Source: a virus (lineage: Duplodnaviria > Heunggongvirae > Uroviricota > Caudoviricetes). Taken from it: a stretch of DNA of 8,386 nt. The stretch lies in the IMG/VR virus record IMGVR_UViG_2585427737_000008. One strand, 5' to 3'. The notes under the pieces were generated by a model that was not told where the DNA came from, searched no databases, and saw nothing but the letters and a program-made list of their open reading frames with translations. A program made the position numbers and the translations under genes. This document shows positions 1,562 through 8,386 of this stretch, piece after piece (position 1 is the stretch's first letter; each line of letters begins with the position of its first letter).

Positions 1562-2956
1562 ATGGGCGGCGGAAAACCGGCGGCGCGGCAGGGTGACATG
1601 ACCCGCAAGGGACTGGATATTGTGCAGGGTTCAGCAGGGGTGCTGATAGGTGCGCCAACCGGTGTGGCCTGCTCGGTGTGTCCCACAAAAAAGGACAGTC
1701 CGAACTATGGCAGCCCGGTGAACCCGCTACTCGGTGCGAAGGTTCTGCCTGTTGAAACCGACCTGGCACTGCCCGGCCCGCTGCCGTTTATTCTTTTCCG
1801 CGCCTACAGCAGCTACCGGACCAGGACGCCCGCGCCAGTGGGCGTGTTTGGTCCCGGCTGGAAAGCGCCCTTCGATATCCGCTTACAGATACGCGATGAA
1901 GGCCTGATACTCAACGACAGCGGTGGTAGGAGCATTCACTTTGAGCCGTTGTTTCCCGGCGAGATAAGCTACAGCCGCAGCGAGTCACTCTGGCTGGCGC
2001 GGGGCGGAGTAGCGGCGCAGCACAGTTCGCAGCCGCTAAGCGCGCTCTGGCAGGTGCTGCCGGAAGATGTTCGCCTGAGTCCGCATGTGTACCTGGCGAC
2101 AAACAGCCTTCAGGGGCCGTGGTGGATACTCAGCTGGCCGGAGCGGGTGCCGGGGGCGGACGAGGTGCTGCCGCCGGAGCCGCCCGCATACCGGGTGCTG
2201 ACGGGCGTGGTGGACGGCTTCGGGCGGACGCTGGCCTTTCACCGGGCGGCGGAGGGTGACGTGGCGGGCGCGGTGACGGGGGTGACGGACGGCGCGGGCC
2301 GCCGTTTTCACCTGGTGCTGACCACACAGGCGCAGCGGGCGGAAGCCTTCCGTAAACAGCGCGCCACGTCTTTATCTTCCCCTGCCGGTCCCCGTTCTGC
2401 TTCCTCTTCTCTGGTTTTCCCCGACACGCTGCCCGCCGGTACAGGATACGGTGCCGATAACGGTATCCGGCTGGAGGCGGTGTGGCTGACACACGACCCG
2501 GCATACCCGGATGAACAGCCGACTGCGCCGCTGGCGCGCTACACGTACACGGCCAGCGGAGAACTGCGGGCGGTGTATGACCGCAGCGGGACGCAGGTTC
2601 GCGGGTTTACTTATGATGCGGAGCACGCCGGGCGGATGGTGGCGCACCATTATGCGGGGAGGCCGGAGAGCCGCTACCGGTATGATGATACCGGTCGGGT
2701 GACGGAGCAGGTCAACCCGGAGGGGCTGGACTACCGCTTTGAGTACGGAGAGAGCCGGGTAATCATCACGGACAGCCTGAACCGGCGGGAGGTGCTGTAC
2801 ACGGAAGGCGAGGGTGGCCTGAAGCGGGTGGTGAAGAAGGAGCATGCCGACGGGAGCATCACCCGCAGCGAGTATGATGAGGCGGGGAGGCTGAAGGCGC
2901 AGACGGATGCGGCGGGGCGGCGGACGGAGTACCGGCTGCATATGGCGTCGGGCTGA
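1562..2956 (+). CDS. Rhs family protein, N-terminal segment (PAAR motif plus first YD-repeat region); upstream half of a split rhs gene
   Basis: 464-aa ORF beginning MGGGKPAARQGD...GSAGVLIGAPTGVACSVCP (literal PAAR motif), closely resembling E. coli Rhs N-termini as I recall them. YD-type repeats (RYRYDDTGR, RSEYDEAGR) appear near the end. Terminates at TGA 2954-2956, whereas intact Rhs proteins continue in this region. Confidence 0.8.
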   Translation: MGGGKPAARQGDMTRKGLDIVQGSAGVLIGAPTGVACSVCPTKKDSPNYGSPVNPLLGAKVLPVETDLALPGPLPFILFRAYSSYRTRTPAPVGVFGPGWKAPFDIRLQIRDEGLILNDSGGRSIHFEPLFPGEISYSRSESLWLARGGVAAQHSSQPLSALWQVLPEDVRLSPHVYLATNSLQGPWWILSWPERVPGADEVLPPEPPAYRVLTGVVDGFGRTLAFHRAAEGDVAGAVTGVTDGAGRRFHLVLTTQAQRAEAFRKQRATSLSSPAGPRSASSSLVFPDTLPAGTGYGADNGIRLEAVWLTHDPAYPDEQPTAPLARYTYTASGELRAVYDRSGTQVRGFTYDAEHAGRMVAHHYAGRPESRYRYDDTGRVTEQVNPEGLDYRFEYGESRVIITDSLNRREVLYTEGEGGLKRVVKKEHADGSITRSEYDEAGRLKAQTDAAGRRTEYRLHMASG

Positions 2957-2960
2957 CTAG

Positions 2961-5789
2961 GTGACGGGGCCGGACGGCAGGACGGTGCGGTATGGCTATA
3001 ACAGCCAGCGGCAGGTGACGTCAGTGACGTACCCGGACGGGCTTCGCAGCAGCCGGGAGTATGATGAGAGGGGAAGGCTGACGGCGGAGACCTCGCGCAG
3101 CGGTGAGACAACGCGGTACAGCTATGATGACCCGGCGAGTGAGCTGCCGACAGGGATACAGGACGCGACGGGCAGTACAAAACAGATGGCATGGAGCCGT
3201 TACGGTCAACTGCTGGCCTTCACGGACTGCTCGGGGTACACGACGCGGTATGAGTACGACCGGTACGGTCAACAAATCGCCGTTCACCGGGAAGAAGGCA
3301 TCAGCACTTACAGCAGTTATAATCCGCGTGGCCAACTGGTCAGTCAGAGGGATGCGCAGGGGCGTGAGACCCGTTATGAGTACAGCGCCGCAGGCGACCT
3401 GACAGCGACGATATCACCGGACGGTAAACGCAGCACCATCGAATATGATAAACGCGGGCGTCCGGTGAGTGTGACGGAAGGCGGACTGACGCGCAGCATG
3501 GGGTATGACGCCGCCGGGCGCATCACCACGCTGACTAATGAGAACGGCAGCCAGTCCACGTTCCTGTATGACCCGGTGGACAGGCTGACGGAGCAGCGCG
3601 GCTTTGATGGCAGGACGCAACGTTACCAGTATGACCTGACCGGAAAACTCACGCAGAGTGAAGACGAGGGACTTATCACCCTCTGGCACTACGATGCGTC
3701 GGACCGCATCACGCACCGGACGGTGAACGGCGACCCGGCGGAGCAGTGGCAGTATGATGAGCACGGGTGGTTAACCACCATCAGCCATACCAGTGAAGGC
3801 CACCGCGTGGCGGTCCACTACGGCTATGACGATAAAGGCCGCCTGACGGGCGAACGGCAGACGGTGGAGAACCCGGAGACGGGGGAGATACTGTGGGAGC
3901 ATGAGACGGGGCATGCATACAGCGAACAGGGGCTGGCGACCCGTCAGGAGCCGGACGGCCTGCCGCCGGTGGAGTGGCTGACGTATGGCAGCGGTTATCT
4001 TGCGGGGATGAAGCTGGGCGGAACGCCACTGGTCGAGTACACGCGGGACCGGCTGCACCGGGAGACGGTGCGCAGCTTCGGCGGGGAGGCCTGTGAACTT
4101 GCCACCGCCTGGAATACCAGCGGCCAGCTACAGAGCAGGCACCTGAACCTTCCGCAGCTTGACTGTGACTATACGTGGAACGATAACGGACAACTAATCC
4201 GCATCAGCGGCCCGCAGGAGAGCCGGGAGTACCGTTACAGCGACACGGGAAGGCTGACGGGCGTCCACACCACGGCGGCGAACCTGGATATCGATATCCC
4301 GTATGCGACGGACCCGGCAGGAAACCGGCTGCCGGACCCGGAACTGCACCCGGACAGCACCCTCACGGCATGGCCGGATAACCGCATCGCGGAAGATGCG
4401 CACTATGTCTACCGCCACGATGAATACGGCAGGCTGGCGGAGAAGACGGACCGCATCCCGGAAGGGGTGATACGGATGCACGACGAGCGGACCCACCACT
4501 ACCACTACGACAGCCAGCACCGCCTGGTGTTCTACACGCGGATACAGCATGGCGAGCCACTGGTCGAGAGCCGCTACCTCTACGACCCGCTGGGACGGCG
4601 AATGGCGAAACGGGTATGGCGGCGGGAGCGTGACCTGACGGGGTGGATGTCGCTGTCGCGTAAACCGGAGGTGACATGGTACGGGTGGGACGGTGACAGG
4701 CTGACGACGATACAGACCGGCACCACGCGTATCCAGACGGTGTACCAGCCGGGGAGCTTCACGCCGCTCCTGAGAATCGAAACAGAGAATGGCGAACAGG
4801 CGAAGGCGCGGCACCGTAGCCTGGCGGAGGTGTTGCAGGAGGACACGGGTGTGACGCTACCGGCGGAGCTGGCGGTGATGCTGGGGAGGCTGGAGCGGGA
4901 ACTGCGCGCGGGAGCGGTGAGTGCGGAGAGTGAGGCATGGCTTGCGCAGTGCGGGCTGACGGCGGAACAGATGGCCGCGCAGATGGAGGCGGAATACATC
5001 CCGGAGAGGAAACTTCATCTTTACCACTGTGACCACCGTGGACTGCCGCAGGCGCTCATCACCCCGGAAGGCGAAACGGCGTGGTGCGGGGAGTATGACG
5101 AGTGGGGGAACCAGCTTAAGGAGGAGACCCCGCATCCCCTGTCCCAGCCGTACCGTTTGCCGGGGCAGCAGTATGATGAGGAGTCGGGACTGTATTACAA
5201 CCGTCACCGGTACTACGATCCGTTGCAGGGGCGGTATATCACCCAGGATCCGATAGGGTTGAAGGGGGGAATAAATCTATACACGTATCCACTGGCACCA
5301 ATACGTTACACTGATCCACTGGGGTTAGAACGAGTTATAAGTGTATATGGGCCTCCCGCTCCAGACCGGGCAGGTGCTGAAACTCCTCTTGTTCTTACTG
5401 ATATGACTGGAGGAGTGACTATTTATTATGATCCTGAAACAGGTGATTCAATGACTTTTGATAGTAGCAATAGAATTGATCGTCGTTCTCAACGTGGTGC
5501 TGGTGATCCATATACAGGTGAAGTCGTTGGTTGTGAGACAAATGAATCAGGAATATCGGCAGCATATGGCACAACGAAGATCTATACTACAGATACTAGA
5601 GCAAGATGGCTACATGGTGGGGGATCATCGTTGCGCGATCCTTATGCTCCTCGACAAGGCTGGAAACCAACTATGGGATGTACCCGTGCACAGAATGAAG
5701 ATGTAGATGAGTTGTGTAAGAAAGTGACAAGTTGGATGTATTCGCATCCTGGAGAGAGAATTAGATATGAACGTTTTAAGACACGTTAA
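2961..5789 (+). CDS. Rhs family protein, YD-repeat shell/core plus polymorphic C-terminal toxin domain; downstream half of the split rhs gene
   Basis: 942-aa ORF in the +1 frame relative to 1562..2956, opening with GTG at 2961 immediately after an in-frame TAG. Numerous YD repeats (RYEYD, RYSYDD, RYQYD), the conserved core end [26 protein letters not shown]...YTDPLGL, then a 153-aa AT-rich C-terminal domain; TAA stop 5787-5789. Whether it is translated independently is unknown. Confidence 0.8.
5328..5786 (+). other. Rhs C-terminal polymorphic toxin domain (Rhs-CT), candidate L,D-transpeptidase-like fold
   Basis: Begins right after DPLGL (5313-5327) and is AT-rich against the GC-rich core. 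Contains WLHGGG, then 22 residues later [19 protein letters not shown], resembling the YkuD pattern H-x(n)-[ST]-x-G-C-x-R-x-x-N-x-D-[IV]-x-x-L. Assignment is by motif recollection only. Confidence 0.4.
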
Positions 5790-6159
5790 TGCGATTAACA
5801 TGGGAGTGTGCATTCTAATTTTGGTTATTGGATGTGCAAATGCTAAAGTTCTTAAACGATGTATATTACCCGCTCCTGATGGTGGCGTAGAAAAACTATC
5901 AAAACCCAACTTACATGGAGTAATTAAAAAAGTTGATTTGAACACAAATGAAGCGGAAATTAAAATAAAAGAGGGGGGGGCAGTGAGTTTTATTTTTAAT
6001 GAGGAAACATTGTATTTTACTGTTTTTGGTGGGGATTTTATTATGGATGATTTAAAAAAAGTAAAAAATACGGAAGCATGGGTATGGTATAAAAATTGCG
6101 ATAGTAAAAATAAAAATGTGGCAGTTGAACTTCTTCAAATCTACGAATTGCATCAATGA
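5767..6159 (+). CDS. Small lipoprotein, putative cognate Rhs immunity protein (RhsI)
   Basis: 130-aa ORF overlapping the rhs 3' end by 23 nt. N-terminus [23 protein letters not shown] has a charged n-region, hydrophobic core and lipobox (VIG|C). AT-rich like the toxin domain; TGA stop 6157-6159. An alternative ATG at 5800 would leave too short a signal peptide. Confidence 0.65.
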
Positions 6160-6199
6160 AAAATATAGTTAAATAGAGGAGGTTATTAATAGCAGGAAA

Positions 6200-6223
6200 A
6201 GCATCACGTGATGCTGATTTTTT
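6200..6223 (+). terminator. Putative Rho-independent terminator downstream of the rhs-immunity pair
   Basis: Perfect 16-bp palindrome AGCATCACGTGATGCT (6200-6215), which can form a ~6-bp stem with a 4-nt loop, followed by GATTTTTTG; an A-run sits upstream. Confidence 0.45.
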
Positions 6224-6325
6224 GCACTAAATAATTCGCATTTTATGTTTAAAAATTGAGATATTCCTTATTACCTAAAGCTGTTTTTTATTGCTTATAC
6301 ATGATCAAATACTCCTTACATAATT

Positions 6326-6331
6326 AAGGAG
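6326..6331 (+). promoter_or_regulatory. Shine-Dalgarno (AAGGAG) for the transposase gene
   Basis: AAGGAG lies 6 nt upstream of the ATG at 6338. Confidence 0.6.
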
Positions 6332-6337
6332 AACAAA

Positions 6338-7474
6338 ATGGAACTTAAAAAATTGATGGAACATATTTCTATTATCCCCGATTACAGACAAGCCTGGAAA
6401 GGGGAGCATAAATTATCGGATATTCTACTGTTAACTATTTGTGCCGTTATTTCTGGTGCAGAGGGTTGGGAAGATATAGAGGATTTTGGGGAAACACATC
6501 TCGATTTTTTGAAGCAATATGGTGATTTTGAAAATGGTATTCCTGTTCACGATACCATTGCCAGAGTTGTATCCTGTATCAGTCCTGCAAAATTTCACCA
6601 GTGCTTTATTAACTGGATGCGTGACTGCCATTCTTCAGATGATAAAGACGTCATTGCAATTGATGGAAAAACGCTCCAGCACTCTTATGACAAGAGTCGC
6701 CGCAGGGGAGCGATTCATGTCATTAGTGCGTTCTCAACAATGCACAGTCTGGTCATCGGACAGATCAAGACGGATGAGAAATCTAATGAGATTACAGCTA
6801 TCCCAAAACTTCTTAACATATTGGATATTAAAGGAAAAATCATCACAACTGATGCGATGGGATGCCAGAAAGATATTGCAGAGAAGATACAAAAACAGGG
6901 CGGTGATTATTTATTCGCGGTAAAAGGAAACCAGGGGCGGCTTAATAAAGCCTTTGAGGAAAAATTTCCGCTGAAAGAATTAAATAATCCAGAGCATGAC
7001 AGTTACGCAATCAGTGAAAAGAGTCACGGCAGAGAAGAAATCCGTCTTCATATTGTTTGCGATGCCCCTGATGAACTTATTGATTTCACGTTTGAATGGA
7101 AAGGGCTGAAGAAATTATGCGTGGCAGTCTCCTTTCGGTCCATAATAGCAGAACAAAAGAAAGAACCCGAAATGACGGTCAGATATTATATCAGCTCTGC
7201 TGATTTAACTGCAGAGAAGTTCGCCACAGCGATCCGAAATCACTGGCACGTGGAGAATAAGCTGCACTGGCGCCTGGACGTGGTAATGAATGAAGACGAC
7301 TGCAGAATAAGAAGAGGAAATGCAGCGGAATTATTTTCAGGGATACGGCACATTGCTATTAATATTTTGACGAATGATAAGGTATTCAAGGCAGGGTTAA
7401 GACGTAAGATGCGAAAAGCAGCCATGGACAGGAACTATCTGGCGTCAGTCCTTGCGGGGAGCGGGCTTTCGTAA
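6338..7474 (+). CDS. ISAs1-family transposase (H-repeat-associated protein, YhhI/YdcC/YbfD-like)
   Basis: 378-aa [67 protein letters not shown]..., which matches my recollection of the E. coli H-repeat-associated proteins nearly residue for residue. Strong SD, TAA stop 7472-7474, uninterrupted. Confidence 0.9.
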
Positions 7475-7487
7475 TCTTGCCCTGGGT

Positions 7488-7493
7488 AGGAGG
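7488..7493 (+). promoter_or_regulatory. Shine-Dalgarno (AGGAGG) for the ORF starting at 7504, sitting in the loop of an inverted repeat
   Basis: AGGAGG lies 10 nt upstream of the ATG at 7504, between inverted arms CCCTGG (7480-7485) and CCAGGG (7498-7503). Confidence 0.4.
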
Positions 7494-7503
7494 CCCTCCA
7501 GGG

Positions 7504-7956
7504 ATGTTAGTCGGTGCGGCAGTTGGAGCGGTGGTTATTGGTGGTGGTATAGTAATATACAACAATCGCGAGGCTGTTGGGGATGCGATTGAGAAAAGTA
7601 TGGAGATGCGGGGTGAAGCCGAATTATTAAATGCACAAAGTCAAATGGAATTCTGGCGAGATCCCTATGGTGCTTTTTCCAGCGTGTTTGGAAATGATGA
7701 TTCATCAAAAGAGAATCCAAATGTCGGGAAGGATTTGACGGATGAAGAGAAGAACTGTTTGGGCAGTGGCAGTACAGGAGGTTCGGGAGGGTGGGAGCCA
7801 GATGAGGATGGCGAAATAAGAAATACCTACAGGTCTATTAAGGATGCTCCTCAGTATCCCAGAGGGTTTAGGAATGTCCAAAATGGCACTACAAGGAATG
7901 TTGTAAAGGATCAGCAGTTATTGAAACAATTACGTAAAGTAGATTCAGGAAAATAG
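7504..7956 (+). CDS. Hypothetical membrane-anchored protein; candidate orphan toxin fragment ending at an in-frame TAG
   Basis: The ORF track opens this frame at TTG 7477; I prefer ATG 7504, which has the SD. N-terminus MLVGAAVGAVVIGGGIVIY is a hydrophobic glycine-zipper-like segment, followed by a Gly/Ser-rich linker (GSGSTGGSGGW). AT-rich; stops at TAG 7954-7956 but the frame stays open 39 more codons to TAA 8074-8076. Confidence 0.5.
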   Translation: MLVGAAVGAVVIGGGIVIYNNREAVGDAIEKSMEMRGEAELLNAQSQMEFWRDPYGAFSSVFGNDDSSKENPNVGKDLTDEEKNCLGSGSTGGSGGWEPDEDGEIRNTYRSIKDAPQYPRGFRNVQNGTTRNVVKDQQLLKQLRKVDSGK

Positions 7957-8075
7957 AGTAAAGTTTATAAAGATGGATTTGATGCGTCAGGTCGAAAAGT
8001 GTCCATTCACTATTTTGAAAGTCAGAGTGGTCGAGTATTTAATGTAAAAGTAAAACCTTATTGGAGTAATTTATA

Positions 8076-8386
8076 ATGAGAATTGATTATAGTATTAGCA
8101 ATGAACACGCAGAGAAATTTATCAGTCTTTTAGTGTTGGGTGTTTTATATTCTATTGAAAAAAAGCAATATCTATAGATGAGGCAGAAGGTTTTATATTT
8201 AAGCCATCTACGTCAAAAACATTGAATGCTGCATCGCACTCTAAAAACTTAATTGACATTATAGATTCTGGTTGTGAGCTTGAAGATATATCTAGCATCA
8301 TTCCTGAAAATTTATCAGGTAATATTGATAAATTAATTAACCAGACGCTGGATTTTATTCGAGGTGCTCCTGATTTTGGCGGTGCA
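8076..8386 (+). pseudogene. Putative immunity gene for the upstream orphan toxin, apparently frameshifted at an A7 tract; 3' end beyond window
   Basis: ATG at 8076 overlaps the upstream TAA (TAATG). It encodes only 33 aa (MRIDYSISNEHAEKFISLLVLGVLYSIEKKQYL) before TAG 8175-8177. The +2 frame is open from 8159 to the window end (…AISIDEAEGFIFKPSTSKTLNAASHSKNLIDIIDSGCELEDISSIIPENLSGNIDKLINQTLDFIRGAPDFGGA) with no ATG or GTG start. Adding one A to the A7 run at 8158-8164 fuses the two. Confidence 0.35.

Follow-up and report, generated by a model that had tools for sequence, protein, structure and literature searches.

A decayed orphan Rhs tip and its immunity gene

The 3′ end of the investigated window (the whole stretch of DNA analyzed here, 8,386 nucleotides) very probably hosts the decayed remains of an orphan Rhs tip and its immunity gene, with the 5′ part cut off by an insertion sequence (IS), the toxin stopped at an invariant tryptophan, and the immunity gene frameshifted. 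Originally, the module would have belonged to an Rhs protein ending in a toxin domain of ~88 aa (7810-8073), the stop codon of which would have overlapped the start of a DUF3969 gene (TAATG, 8074-8078), leading to a tightly coupled translation of the pair. Its present state would be explained by three lesions in the E. coli lineage with this copy, whose order of mention here, from IS cut over nonsense mutation to frameshift, carries no time order. An ISAs1 element (6193-7482) presumably took away the native start together with the Rhs core. At 7954-7956, TGG, the codon of the invariant Trp, turned into TAG, with loss of the domain half that comprises three β-strands and a His-Tyr-Phe motif, and a 1-nt deletion at an A-run (8158-8164) shifted the frame of the immunity gene. 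In this condition, the module would provide neither a toxin nor a full-length immunity protein and would persist as a hitch-hiking pseudogene between rhs genes. Correspondingly, the truncated product is probably non-functional and the module probably not expressed. The preliminary description, made from the sequence without database searches, had recognized the in-frame amber codon and the TAATG junction; the frameshift of the immunity gene at 8158-8164 and the IS cut at the 5′ end of the orphan were missed in this earlier reading, and the whole module is decayed.

Locus and gene order

Annotation of open reading frames (ORFs) and Pfam domains characterized the window as a T6SS-linked rhs locus of E. 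coli. The gene order, found likewise in RefSeq genomes (VgrG, Rhs, immunity candidate, IS, orphan), is composed of the following modules:

17-1486: C-terminal part of VgrG, first in the gene order
1562-2956 and 2961-5789 (overall 1562-5789): Rhs protein with DUF6531, RHS repeats, an RHS core-end motif, and a weak YkuD-like tip
5767-6159: immunity candidate for the main Rhs protein, a small overlapping ORF at the usual immunity position
6193-7482, + strand: ISAs1-family element (ISEc1 / H-repeat type) between the immunity candidate (5767-6159) and the orphan, with limits taken from a further ISAs1 copy of E. coli IAI1 that matches over 1,290 bp
from 7483, + strand: orphan ORF, 3′ of the IS and last module of the window

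Being located 3′ of a full-length vgrG-linked rhs gene and of the immunity gene belonging to it, the orphan occupies the position of a displaced tip. In strain IAI1, the segment resides between two rhs genes near yafV-ivy-fadE; in other E. coli strains, it is also found at a second chromosomal rhs locus.

The main rhs gene of the window shows features of its own. It is broken at 2945-2965 into the two ORFs 1562-2956 and 2961-5789, corresponding to a net deficit of 5 nt compared with both rhs genes of IAI1 and with strain 504237, where rhs is one intact CDS of 4,233 nt. The deficit falls within a part of the core that is mosaic and diverges locally. No full-length match to the main rhs gene in complete E. 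coli genomes exceeded 96.6% identity, and two records with at least 99% identity apparently cover only part of the query. The split may represent a strain-specific pseudogene or an assembly error. The tip of this protein (5202-5789) gave a weak match to YkuD, the L,D-transpeptidase catalytic domain (E 4.4e-5, 24.5 bits vs a cutoff of 23.4). The presumed immunity gene at 5767-6159 (130 aa) is AT-rich, overlaps the Rhs tip by 23 nt, and matched DUF4367 only below threshold. A scan of the whole window against Rfam at gathering thresholds returned zero hits.

The IS element and the missing 5′ end of the orphan

The IS harbors an intact transposase ORF (6338-7474, 378 aa) with the Pfam domains DDE_Tnp_1_assoc (2.5e-33) and DDE_Tnp_1 (8.1e-30), named ISAs1 family transposase in RefSeq. 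The IAI1 copy of the IS at the same place contains an internal stop. Terminal inverted repeats were not found by a repeat finder applied to 6193-7482; the limits of the IS were taken from the comparison with another ISAs1 copy instead. Its right end at 7482 abuts the orphan, whose 5′ end is cut off and which starts with the following remnant:

7483-7809, + strand: Rhs pre-toxin linker remnant (GGPPG...NNREAVGD...PNVGKDLTDEEKNCL...), without Rhs core and without DPxGL cleavage motif

Homology to intact relatives sets in at GGPPG (~7489), corresponding to a site ~27 residues after DPLGL, the motif at which the Rhs core of homolog P0012 ends, and two further homologs (P0006 and P0005) carry the end of the Rhs core. 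As the IS ends at 7482 and the homology begins directly thereafter at GGPPG, the orphan is devoid of the Rhs core, the cleavage motif, and a native start. No PxxxxDPxGL motif is found 5′ of its variable tip; this motif and the core fragment were presumably lost through the IS insertion. The only candidate starts left to the orphan are a TTG at 7477, inside the IS end, and an internal ATG at 7504, the latter being the choice of PGAP. A search for sigma-70-like promoters on the + strand of 7300-8386, including the interval between IS and orphan, found none, whereby such a scan constitutes weak evidence.

The linker itself is shared more widely. The motif PNVGKDLTDEEKNCL is common to other E. coli Rhs tips with different toxins (P0033 and P0034), and the window stretch 7720-7800 (PNVGKDLTDEEKNCL...GG.G.PGGW.P.DE) also occurs in two loci with unrelated toxin domains (L012 and L013). 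Judged from these alignments, it looks like a recombination junction 5′ of a variable toxin. An E. coli copy of the toxin on a full-length Rhs protein was sought via the alternative upstream context present in L008, a related contig from Logan (public sequencing-run assembly); the hits share the pre-toxin linker only and carry other toxins.

An amber codon in place of a conserved tryptophan

Downstream of the linker, the toxin domain is divided by an in-frame stop codon into two parts:

7810-7953, + strand: N-terminal half of the toxin domain, 48 codons, alignable with every homolog and containing the invariant residues Y, S, I, K, P, Y, P, F, N, G, T
7954-7956, + strand: amber codon TAG, one G-to-A transition away from TGG (Trp), with W in homologs
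7957-8073, + strand: C-terminal half of the toxin domain, 39 codons, untranslated, delineated by conservation, dN/dS, and the AlphaFold2 (AF2) model of homolog P0016

The TAG is embedded in the context GTA GAT TCA GGA AAA TAG AGT AAA GTT TAT. Using the read-through sequence as protein query, homologs were retrieved from Salmonella, Snodgrassella, Gilliamella, Xenorhabdus, an Enterobacteriaceae MAG, and a Syntrophomonadaceae MAG. In all 13 first-round homologs, defined as those not of E. coli type, a W within the motif ...ESGKW-x-KVYKDG... aligned to the amber codon, and all 13 sequences continue through the 39 residues following the TAG of the window. The wider family, represented by 166 members aligned to the domain profile, has W at the amber position in 160 of 161 members. 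On DNA level, the Salmonella codon aligned with the TAG is TGG. With W in all 13 homologs and TGG in Salmonella, the lesion is explained by a single G-to-A transition. E. coli-type proteins of a large protein database that reach the amber point (P0002, P0003, and P0007) all end with ...VDSGK. Homologs consequently carry a sense codon at the position of the stop as well as conserved sequence up to a common downstream stop, the pattern of a nonsense pseudogene, and the alignments identify TAG 7954-7956 as a real TGG-to-TAG nonsense mutation that halves the predicted toxin domain. This bears out the initial proposal that the toxin gene once ran to 8076 and then gained a nonsense mutation, since the homologs outside E. 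coli have Trp at this codon and their stop at the equivalent of 8074; the alignment suggested at that time as a check for a sense codon at 7954-7956 gave the outcome predicted by it.

The lost half of the toxin domain

After the TAG, the same frame contains 39 sense codons (SKVYKDGFDASGRKVSIHYFESQSGRVFNVKVKPYWSNL) followed by TAA 8074-8076, which overlaps the ATG at 8076-8078, exactly as had been described initially. The 117 nt of this post-amber stretch have a G+C content of 31.6%. Only 1.9% of 20,000 composition-matched mononucleotide shuffles of these 117 nt lacked an in-frame stop, and the remaining two frames of the stretch are interrupted by 2 and 6 stops. An open frame arising by chance is mildly unlikely on this basis; it is homology that settles the coding nature of the post-amber frame.

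The most conserved residues of the family (K, Y, G, S, H-Y-F, G, W-S), including its only near-invariant His, reside in this half. In the 166-member alignment, the residues conserved in at least 90% include K55, Y57, G60, S69, H71, Y72, F73, G78, W89, and S90, all of them positioned after the amber codon. Compared with the Salmonella allele, dN/dS amounts to 0.075 for the post-amber half (8.5 synonymous and 3.5 non-synonymous differences over 31 comparable codons), similar to the 0.049 determined for the pre-amber half of the domain. According to this estimate, the post-amber half still carries the signal of purifying selection relative to the Salmonella allele, and as both halves resemble each other, the nonsense mutation is recent relative to the divergence of the E. 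coli and Salmonella alleles. Since 141 of the 151 family proteins with a complete domain end no more than 4 residues past its last position, TAA 8074 represents the ancestral stop.

In the AF2 model of P0016, the second strand (117-125) opens with the Trp that aligns to the amber codon, and all three C-terminal strands come after this residue. The amber codon is consequently predicted to remove three strands together with the H-Y-F motif.

Separately, an ENA metagenome contig of 1,882 nt encodes a 140-aa protein (P0029) that combines a DedA/VTT-like N-terminus (PF09335) with 37 of the 39 post-amber residues (VYKDGFDASG...PYWSNL), these being identical. It is probably a chimeric assembly or the product of a rearrangement.

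The TAATG junction and the frameshifted DUF3969 gene

The sequence downstream of the ancestral toxin stop is organized as follows:

8074-8078, + strand: TAATG junction, the ancestral toxin stop TAA (8074-8076) sharing its last A with the immunity ATG (8076-8078)
8076-8177, + strand: 5′ part of the DUF3969 gene, read in the original frame up to a premature TAG after 33 codons, which results from the frameshift; aligning to the N-termini of intact DUF3969 proteins of 111-118 aa
8158-8164, + strand: A7 homopolymer at or next to the 1-nt deletion, relative to Salmonella, that frameshifts the immunity gene
8165-8386, + strand: remaining 3′ part of the gene, read in the shifted frame and running ~30 nt beyond the window end

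At the frameshift site, Salmonella reads ATTGAAAATAAGGTAATATCT, compared with ATTGAAAAAAAG-CAATATCT in the window. Compared with Salmonella, one base is missing from the window at the A7 run or beside it, and the immunity gene is therefore frameshifted; the addition of one base at the A-run would repair the frame so that ...IEKKAISIDEAEGF... is read. Beyond the 33-codon ORF, the shifted frame continues with ...KKAISIDEAEGFIFKP... up to the window end. In the related Logan contig L008, the same run is A6 and likewise out of frame. With both frames joined across the shift, the sequence matched Pfam PF13108 (DUF3969) with an E value of 4.3e-19 and 69 bits vs a cutoff of 25, covering model positions 4-90 of 106 and spanning the junction. 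Only in this joined form does the window copy pass the gathering threshold of PF13108. An intact ORF of ~110-118 aa is absent from the window, as the original frame stops after 33 codons, and RefSeq annotates DUF3969 fragments of only 64-86 codons, in the segment of the window the last 64 codons.

Intact DUF3969 genes of 111-118 codons directly follow the toxin in Salmonella, Xenorhabdus, Gilliamella, and the Syntrophomonadaceae MAG. The TAATG junction of the window is shared by the Salmonella locus L002 and the Xenorhabdus japonica locus L003 and is present in several Xenorhabdus loci. In Gilliamella, stop and start are separated by a 1-nt spacer, and in the Firmicutes (Syntrophomonadaceae) MAG by 20 nt containing GGAG. 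A scan of one genome per species detected a DUF3969-like ORF directly 3′ of the toxin domain in 71 out of 78 loci. With start codons called heuristically for these 71 junctions, stop and start overlap by 1 or 4 nt in 24 of them, and most others are spaced by at most 25 nt. The assumption that TAATG is typical of a translationally coupled toxin-immunity pair was hence well founded, since the junction leads into DUF3969 and recurs in Salmonella and Xenorhabdus. Because of its consistent position directly after the toxin domain, DUF3969 is best interpreted as the family of immunity proteins cognate to this domain. Pfam lists PF13108 as a family of unknown function, and among the papers searchable here none contains the term DUF3969 or PF13108.

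A GGAG (8063-8066), located 9 nt 5′ of the immunity ATG, lies within the codons of the conserved Trp-Ser. In the window, TGGAGT (8061-8066) codes for this near-invariant Trp-Ser at the C-terminus of the toxin, and the same TGGAGT is found in many homologous loci. With this arrangement, the Trp-Ser motif of the toxin may at the same time provide the immunity gene with its Shine-Dalgarno sequence.

The toxin domain family

A profile search with the ~88-aa domain (window 7810-8073) against 1.84 billion representative proteins retrieved 403 clusters at 50% identity, 128 of them at E values of at most 1e-30. Within these 403 clusters, the domain is almost always located at the extreme C-terminus of its carrier protein. 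Proteobacteria as well as Firmicutes contain carriers of the domain. Among them are two Rhs-repeat proteins (1,588 and 1,708 aa), a protein of 1,941 aa with SpvB, TcdB-middle, FG-GAP, and Rhs regions, and one protein each of PT-HINT and PAAR-like type. Terminating Rhs, PT-HINT, PAAR-like, and TcdB/SpvB-type proteins in this way, the domain qualifies as a polymorphic-toxin tip, and the orphan is homologous to the C-terminal domain of such full-length toxins. A search for a family name in Pfam, NCBIfam, and by PDB sequence profile gave no usable match, and no relation to known toxin families (Pfam Ntox/Tox, BECR-fold RNases, HNH, deaminases, and others) was found. AF2 modeled the domain of P0016 with a pLDDT of about 85-94 as a long strand and a helix followed by three more antiparallel strands, and this confidently predicted model matches no solved fold.

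Whether the domain constitutes an undescribed polymorphic-toxin family with DUF3969 as its dedicated immunity protein is, in our assessment, evenly balanced. The intact domain is probably toxic. Its activity might be that of a small metal-independent nuclease or RNase, a guess based on the conserved His, Lys, and Tyr together with the lack of an invariant acidic residue in the alignment. If the family is indeed undescribed, the E. coli copy, once its TAG is restored to TGG and one base is added to the A-run, would provide a ready pair for defining a new toxic activity. The module thereby points to an uncharacterized toxin domain and gives DUF3969 a likely role in immunity.

Disrupted copies of the module are also seen in other species. 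The orphan of Salmonella enterica GCA_010723345.1 (L002, 2855-2890) keeps TGG at the Trp codon and has its own 1-nt deletion eight codons 5′ of the native stop, resulting in a premature TAA, next to an intact DUF3969 gene (113 aa). In Xenorhabdus yunnanensis (L074, 1603-1605), the toxin domain contains an in-frame stop. At about five loci (L077, L080, L082, L083, and L084) the domain is split between frames, and several more loci carry a partial domain.

Distribution in E. coli and alternative explanations

Using a 71-mer centered on the amber codon as query, the segment was detected in 605 out of 5,426 complete E. coli genomes (~11%), with 588 records matching the TAG allele at 100%. The corresponding 71-mer with TGG reached a best identity of 98.6% and no exact match in the same 5,426 genomes. 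Of the 19 non-identical records, the one inspected retains the truncated CDS of 453 nt that is present in every E. coli copy inspected. The whole interval 7440-8386 (947 bp) shows 100% identity throughout the 30 complete E. coli assemblies listed, which originate from many labs and platforms and include IAI1. The TAG allele is fixed wherever the module occurs in E. coli. RefSeq/PGAP list the truncated ORF of 150 aa (“hypothetical protein”) and the DUF3969 fragment as ordinary genes, without a pseudogene flag. The near-invariance across ~600 genomes could be due to recent spread, to linkage to the adjacent rhs gene, or to some retained role.

Such a role is the subject of the best surviving alternative, which assigns a newly gained function to the truncated product of 150-159 aa, made up of linker and half-domain, or to the C-terminal DUF3969 fragment. 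We regard this as improbable, even though PGAP calls both CDS in every genome inspected and an Rhs immunity protein has reportedly been repurposed for another role in one published case. The truncated toxin is without three β-strands and its most conserved residues and is unlikely to fold, while its ORF is without a native start. The DUF3969 fragment could in principle keep some activity, yet it is missing the conserved N-terminal ~30 residues including a hydrophobic helix. Moreover, linkage and recent descent account equally well for the conservation, and the signal of purifying selection sits in the ancestral post-amber frame and not in a new one.

Somewhat less likely still is a functional amber codon, serving by low-level read-through or suppression as a “safety catch,” with the A-run in the immunity gene as a slippage-prone switch. 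The fully open post-amber frame, the intact TAATG, and the conservation of the allele in ~600 genomes would be compatible with it, as would the variation of the run between A7 in the window and A6 in L008, which resembles that of a slippage-prone tract. The residue to be restored is, however, a near-invariant Trp, and its replacement by Gln, Tyr, or Lys through near-cognate or supE-type decoding would probably achieve no functional rescue; E. coli is also not known to have a dedicated UAG-decoding system. Neither A7 nor A6 restores the immunity frame, and no copy inspected contains a full-length immunity CDS, the annotated fragments being limited to 64-86 aa. The Rhs core needed for delivery is gone, and no promoter-like site was found by the scan of the + strand described above. 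The hallmarks of programmed read-through are equally absent, as the stop is confined to the E. coli allele, with Trp in every other homolog, and no Rfam hit was obtained. That amber codon and A-run operate together as leaky or phase-variable switches is accordingly rated slightly lower again.

A sequencing or assembly error at 7954-7956 in a gene that is intact in the real genome, considered initially because TAG is just one base from TGG, a change an error could make, and to be weighed also in view of the other frame disruptions of the window (rhs core near 2950 and A-run 8158-8164), is refuted by the E. coli population counts, as identical bases in hundreds of independent complete assemblies, with the 947-bp identity and no TGG counterpart, demonstrate that the codon is real, leaving this explanation practically no probability.

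For the decayed orphan tip as the preferred explanation, a practical consequence arises. The 150-aa ORF and the 64-86-aa DUF3969 fragment of RefSeq would be pieces of one dead module in hundreds of E. coli genomes, for which a pseudogene flag is warranted.

Comparison with known systems

Displaced Rhs tips “shunted to a silent position” have been described (Jackson et al. 2009, PMC2935791). Like those of Enterobacteriaceae (PMC2935791; Poole et al. 2011, PMC3150448; Koskiniemi et al. 2014, PMC3967940), the window orphan is found at a silent position 3′ of a vgrG-linked rhs gene and its immunity gene, its toxin tip has homologs that form the C-terminal ends of full-length Rhs proteins elsewhere, and the cognate immunity gene follows directly. 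Typical displaced orphans keep a piece of the Rhs core with DPxGL, allowing recombination onto the main gene, whereas the window orphan lost this piece to ISAs1; with the core piece removed, its re-recruitment by core homology is no longer possible. A further difference is that both toxin and immunity gene of the window carry inactivating mutations. With its frame repaired, the immunity gene is a clear member of DUF3969 (PF13108), but the window copy is frameshifted.

Silencing by nonsense mutation has precedents as well, displaced Rhs tips being known from the literature as silent and frequently struck by such mutations (PMC2935791; PMC5727410). Orphaned toxin domains of Serratia marcescens are silenced in this way (Steele et al. 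2017, PMC5727410), rhs3 of S. alvi was pseudogenized by nonsense mutations, and orphaned immunity genes gain nonsense mutations, too (PMC5727410). The window toxin resembles these Serratia marcescens and Snodgrassella alvi orphans in being silenced by a nonsense mutation, and members of the same toxin family occur in Snodgrassella and Gilliamella (P0013, P0014, and P0022). In contrast to the cases reported there, one nonsense mutation and one frameshift are fixed across ~11% of complete E. coli genomes. As the rest of the coding sequence of the module is pristine, the decay is recent. Nonsense-silenced displaced Rhs tips are already described and the window module is, in comparison with these systems, an ordinary decayed remnant. 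It provides a clean and datable example for the decay of a displaced Rhs tip, in which a cut by an IS is combined with a single nonsense mutation and a single frameshift and the coding signal is otherwise intact.
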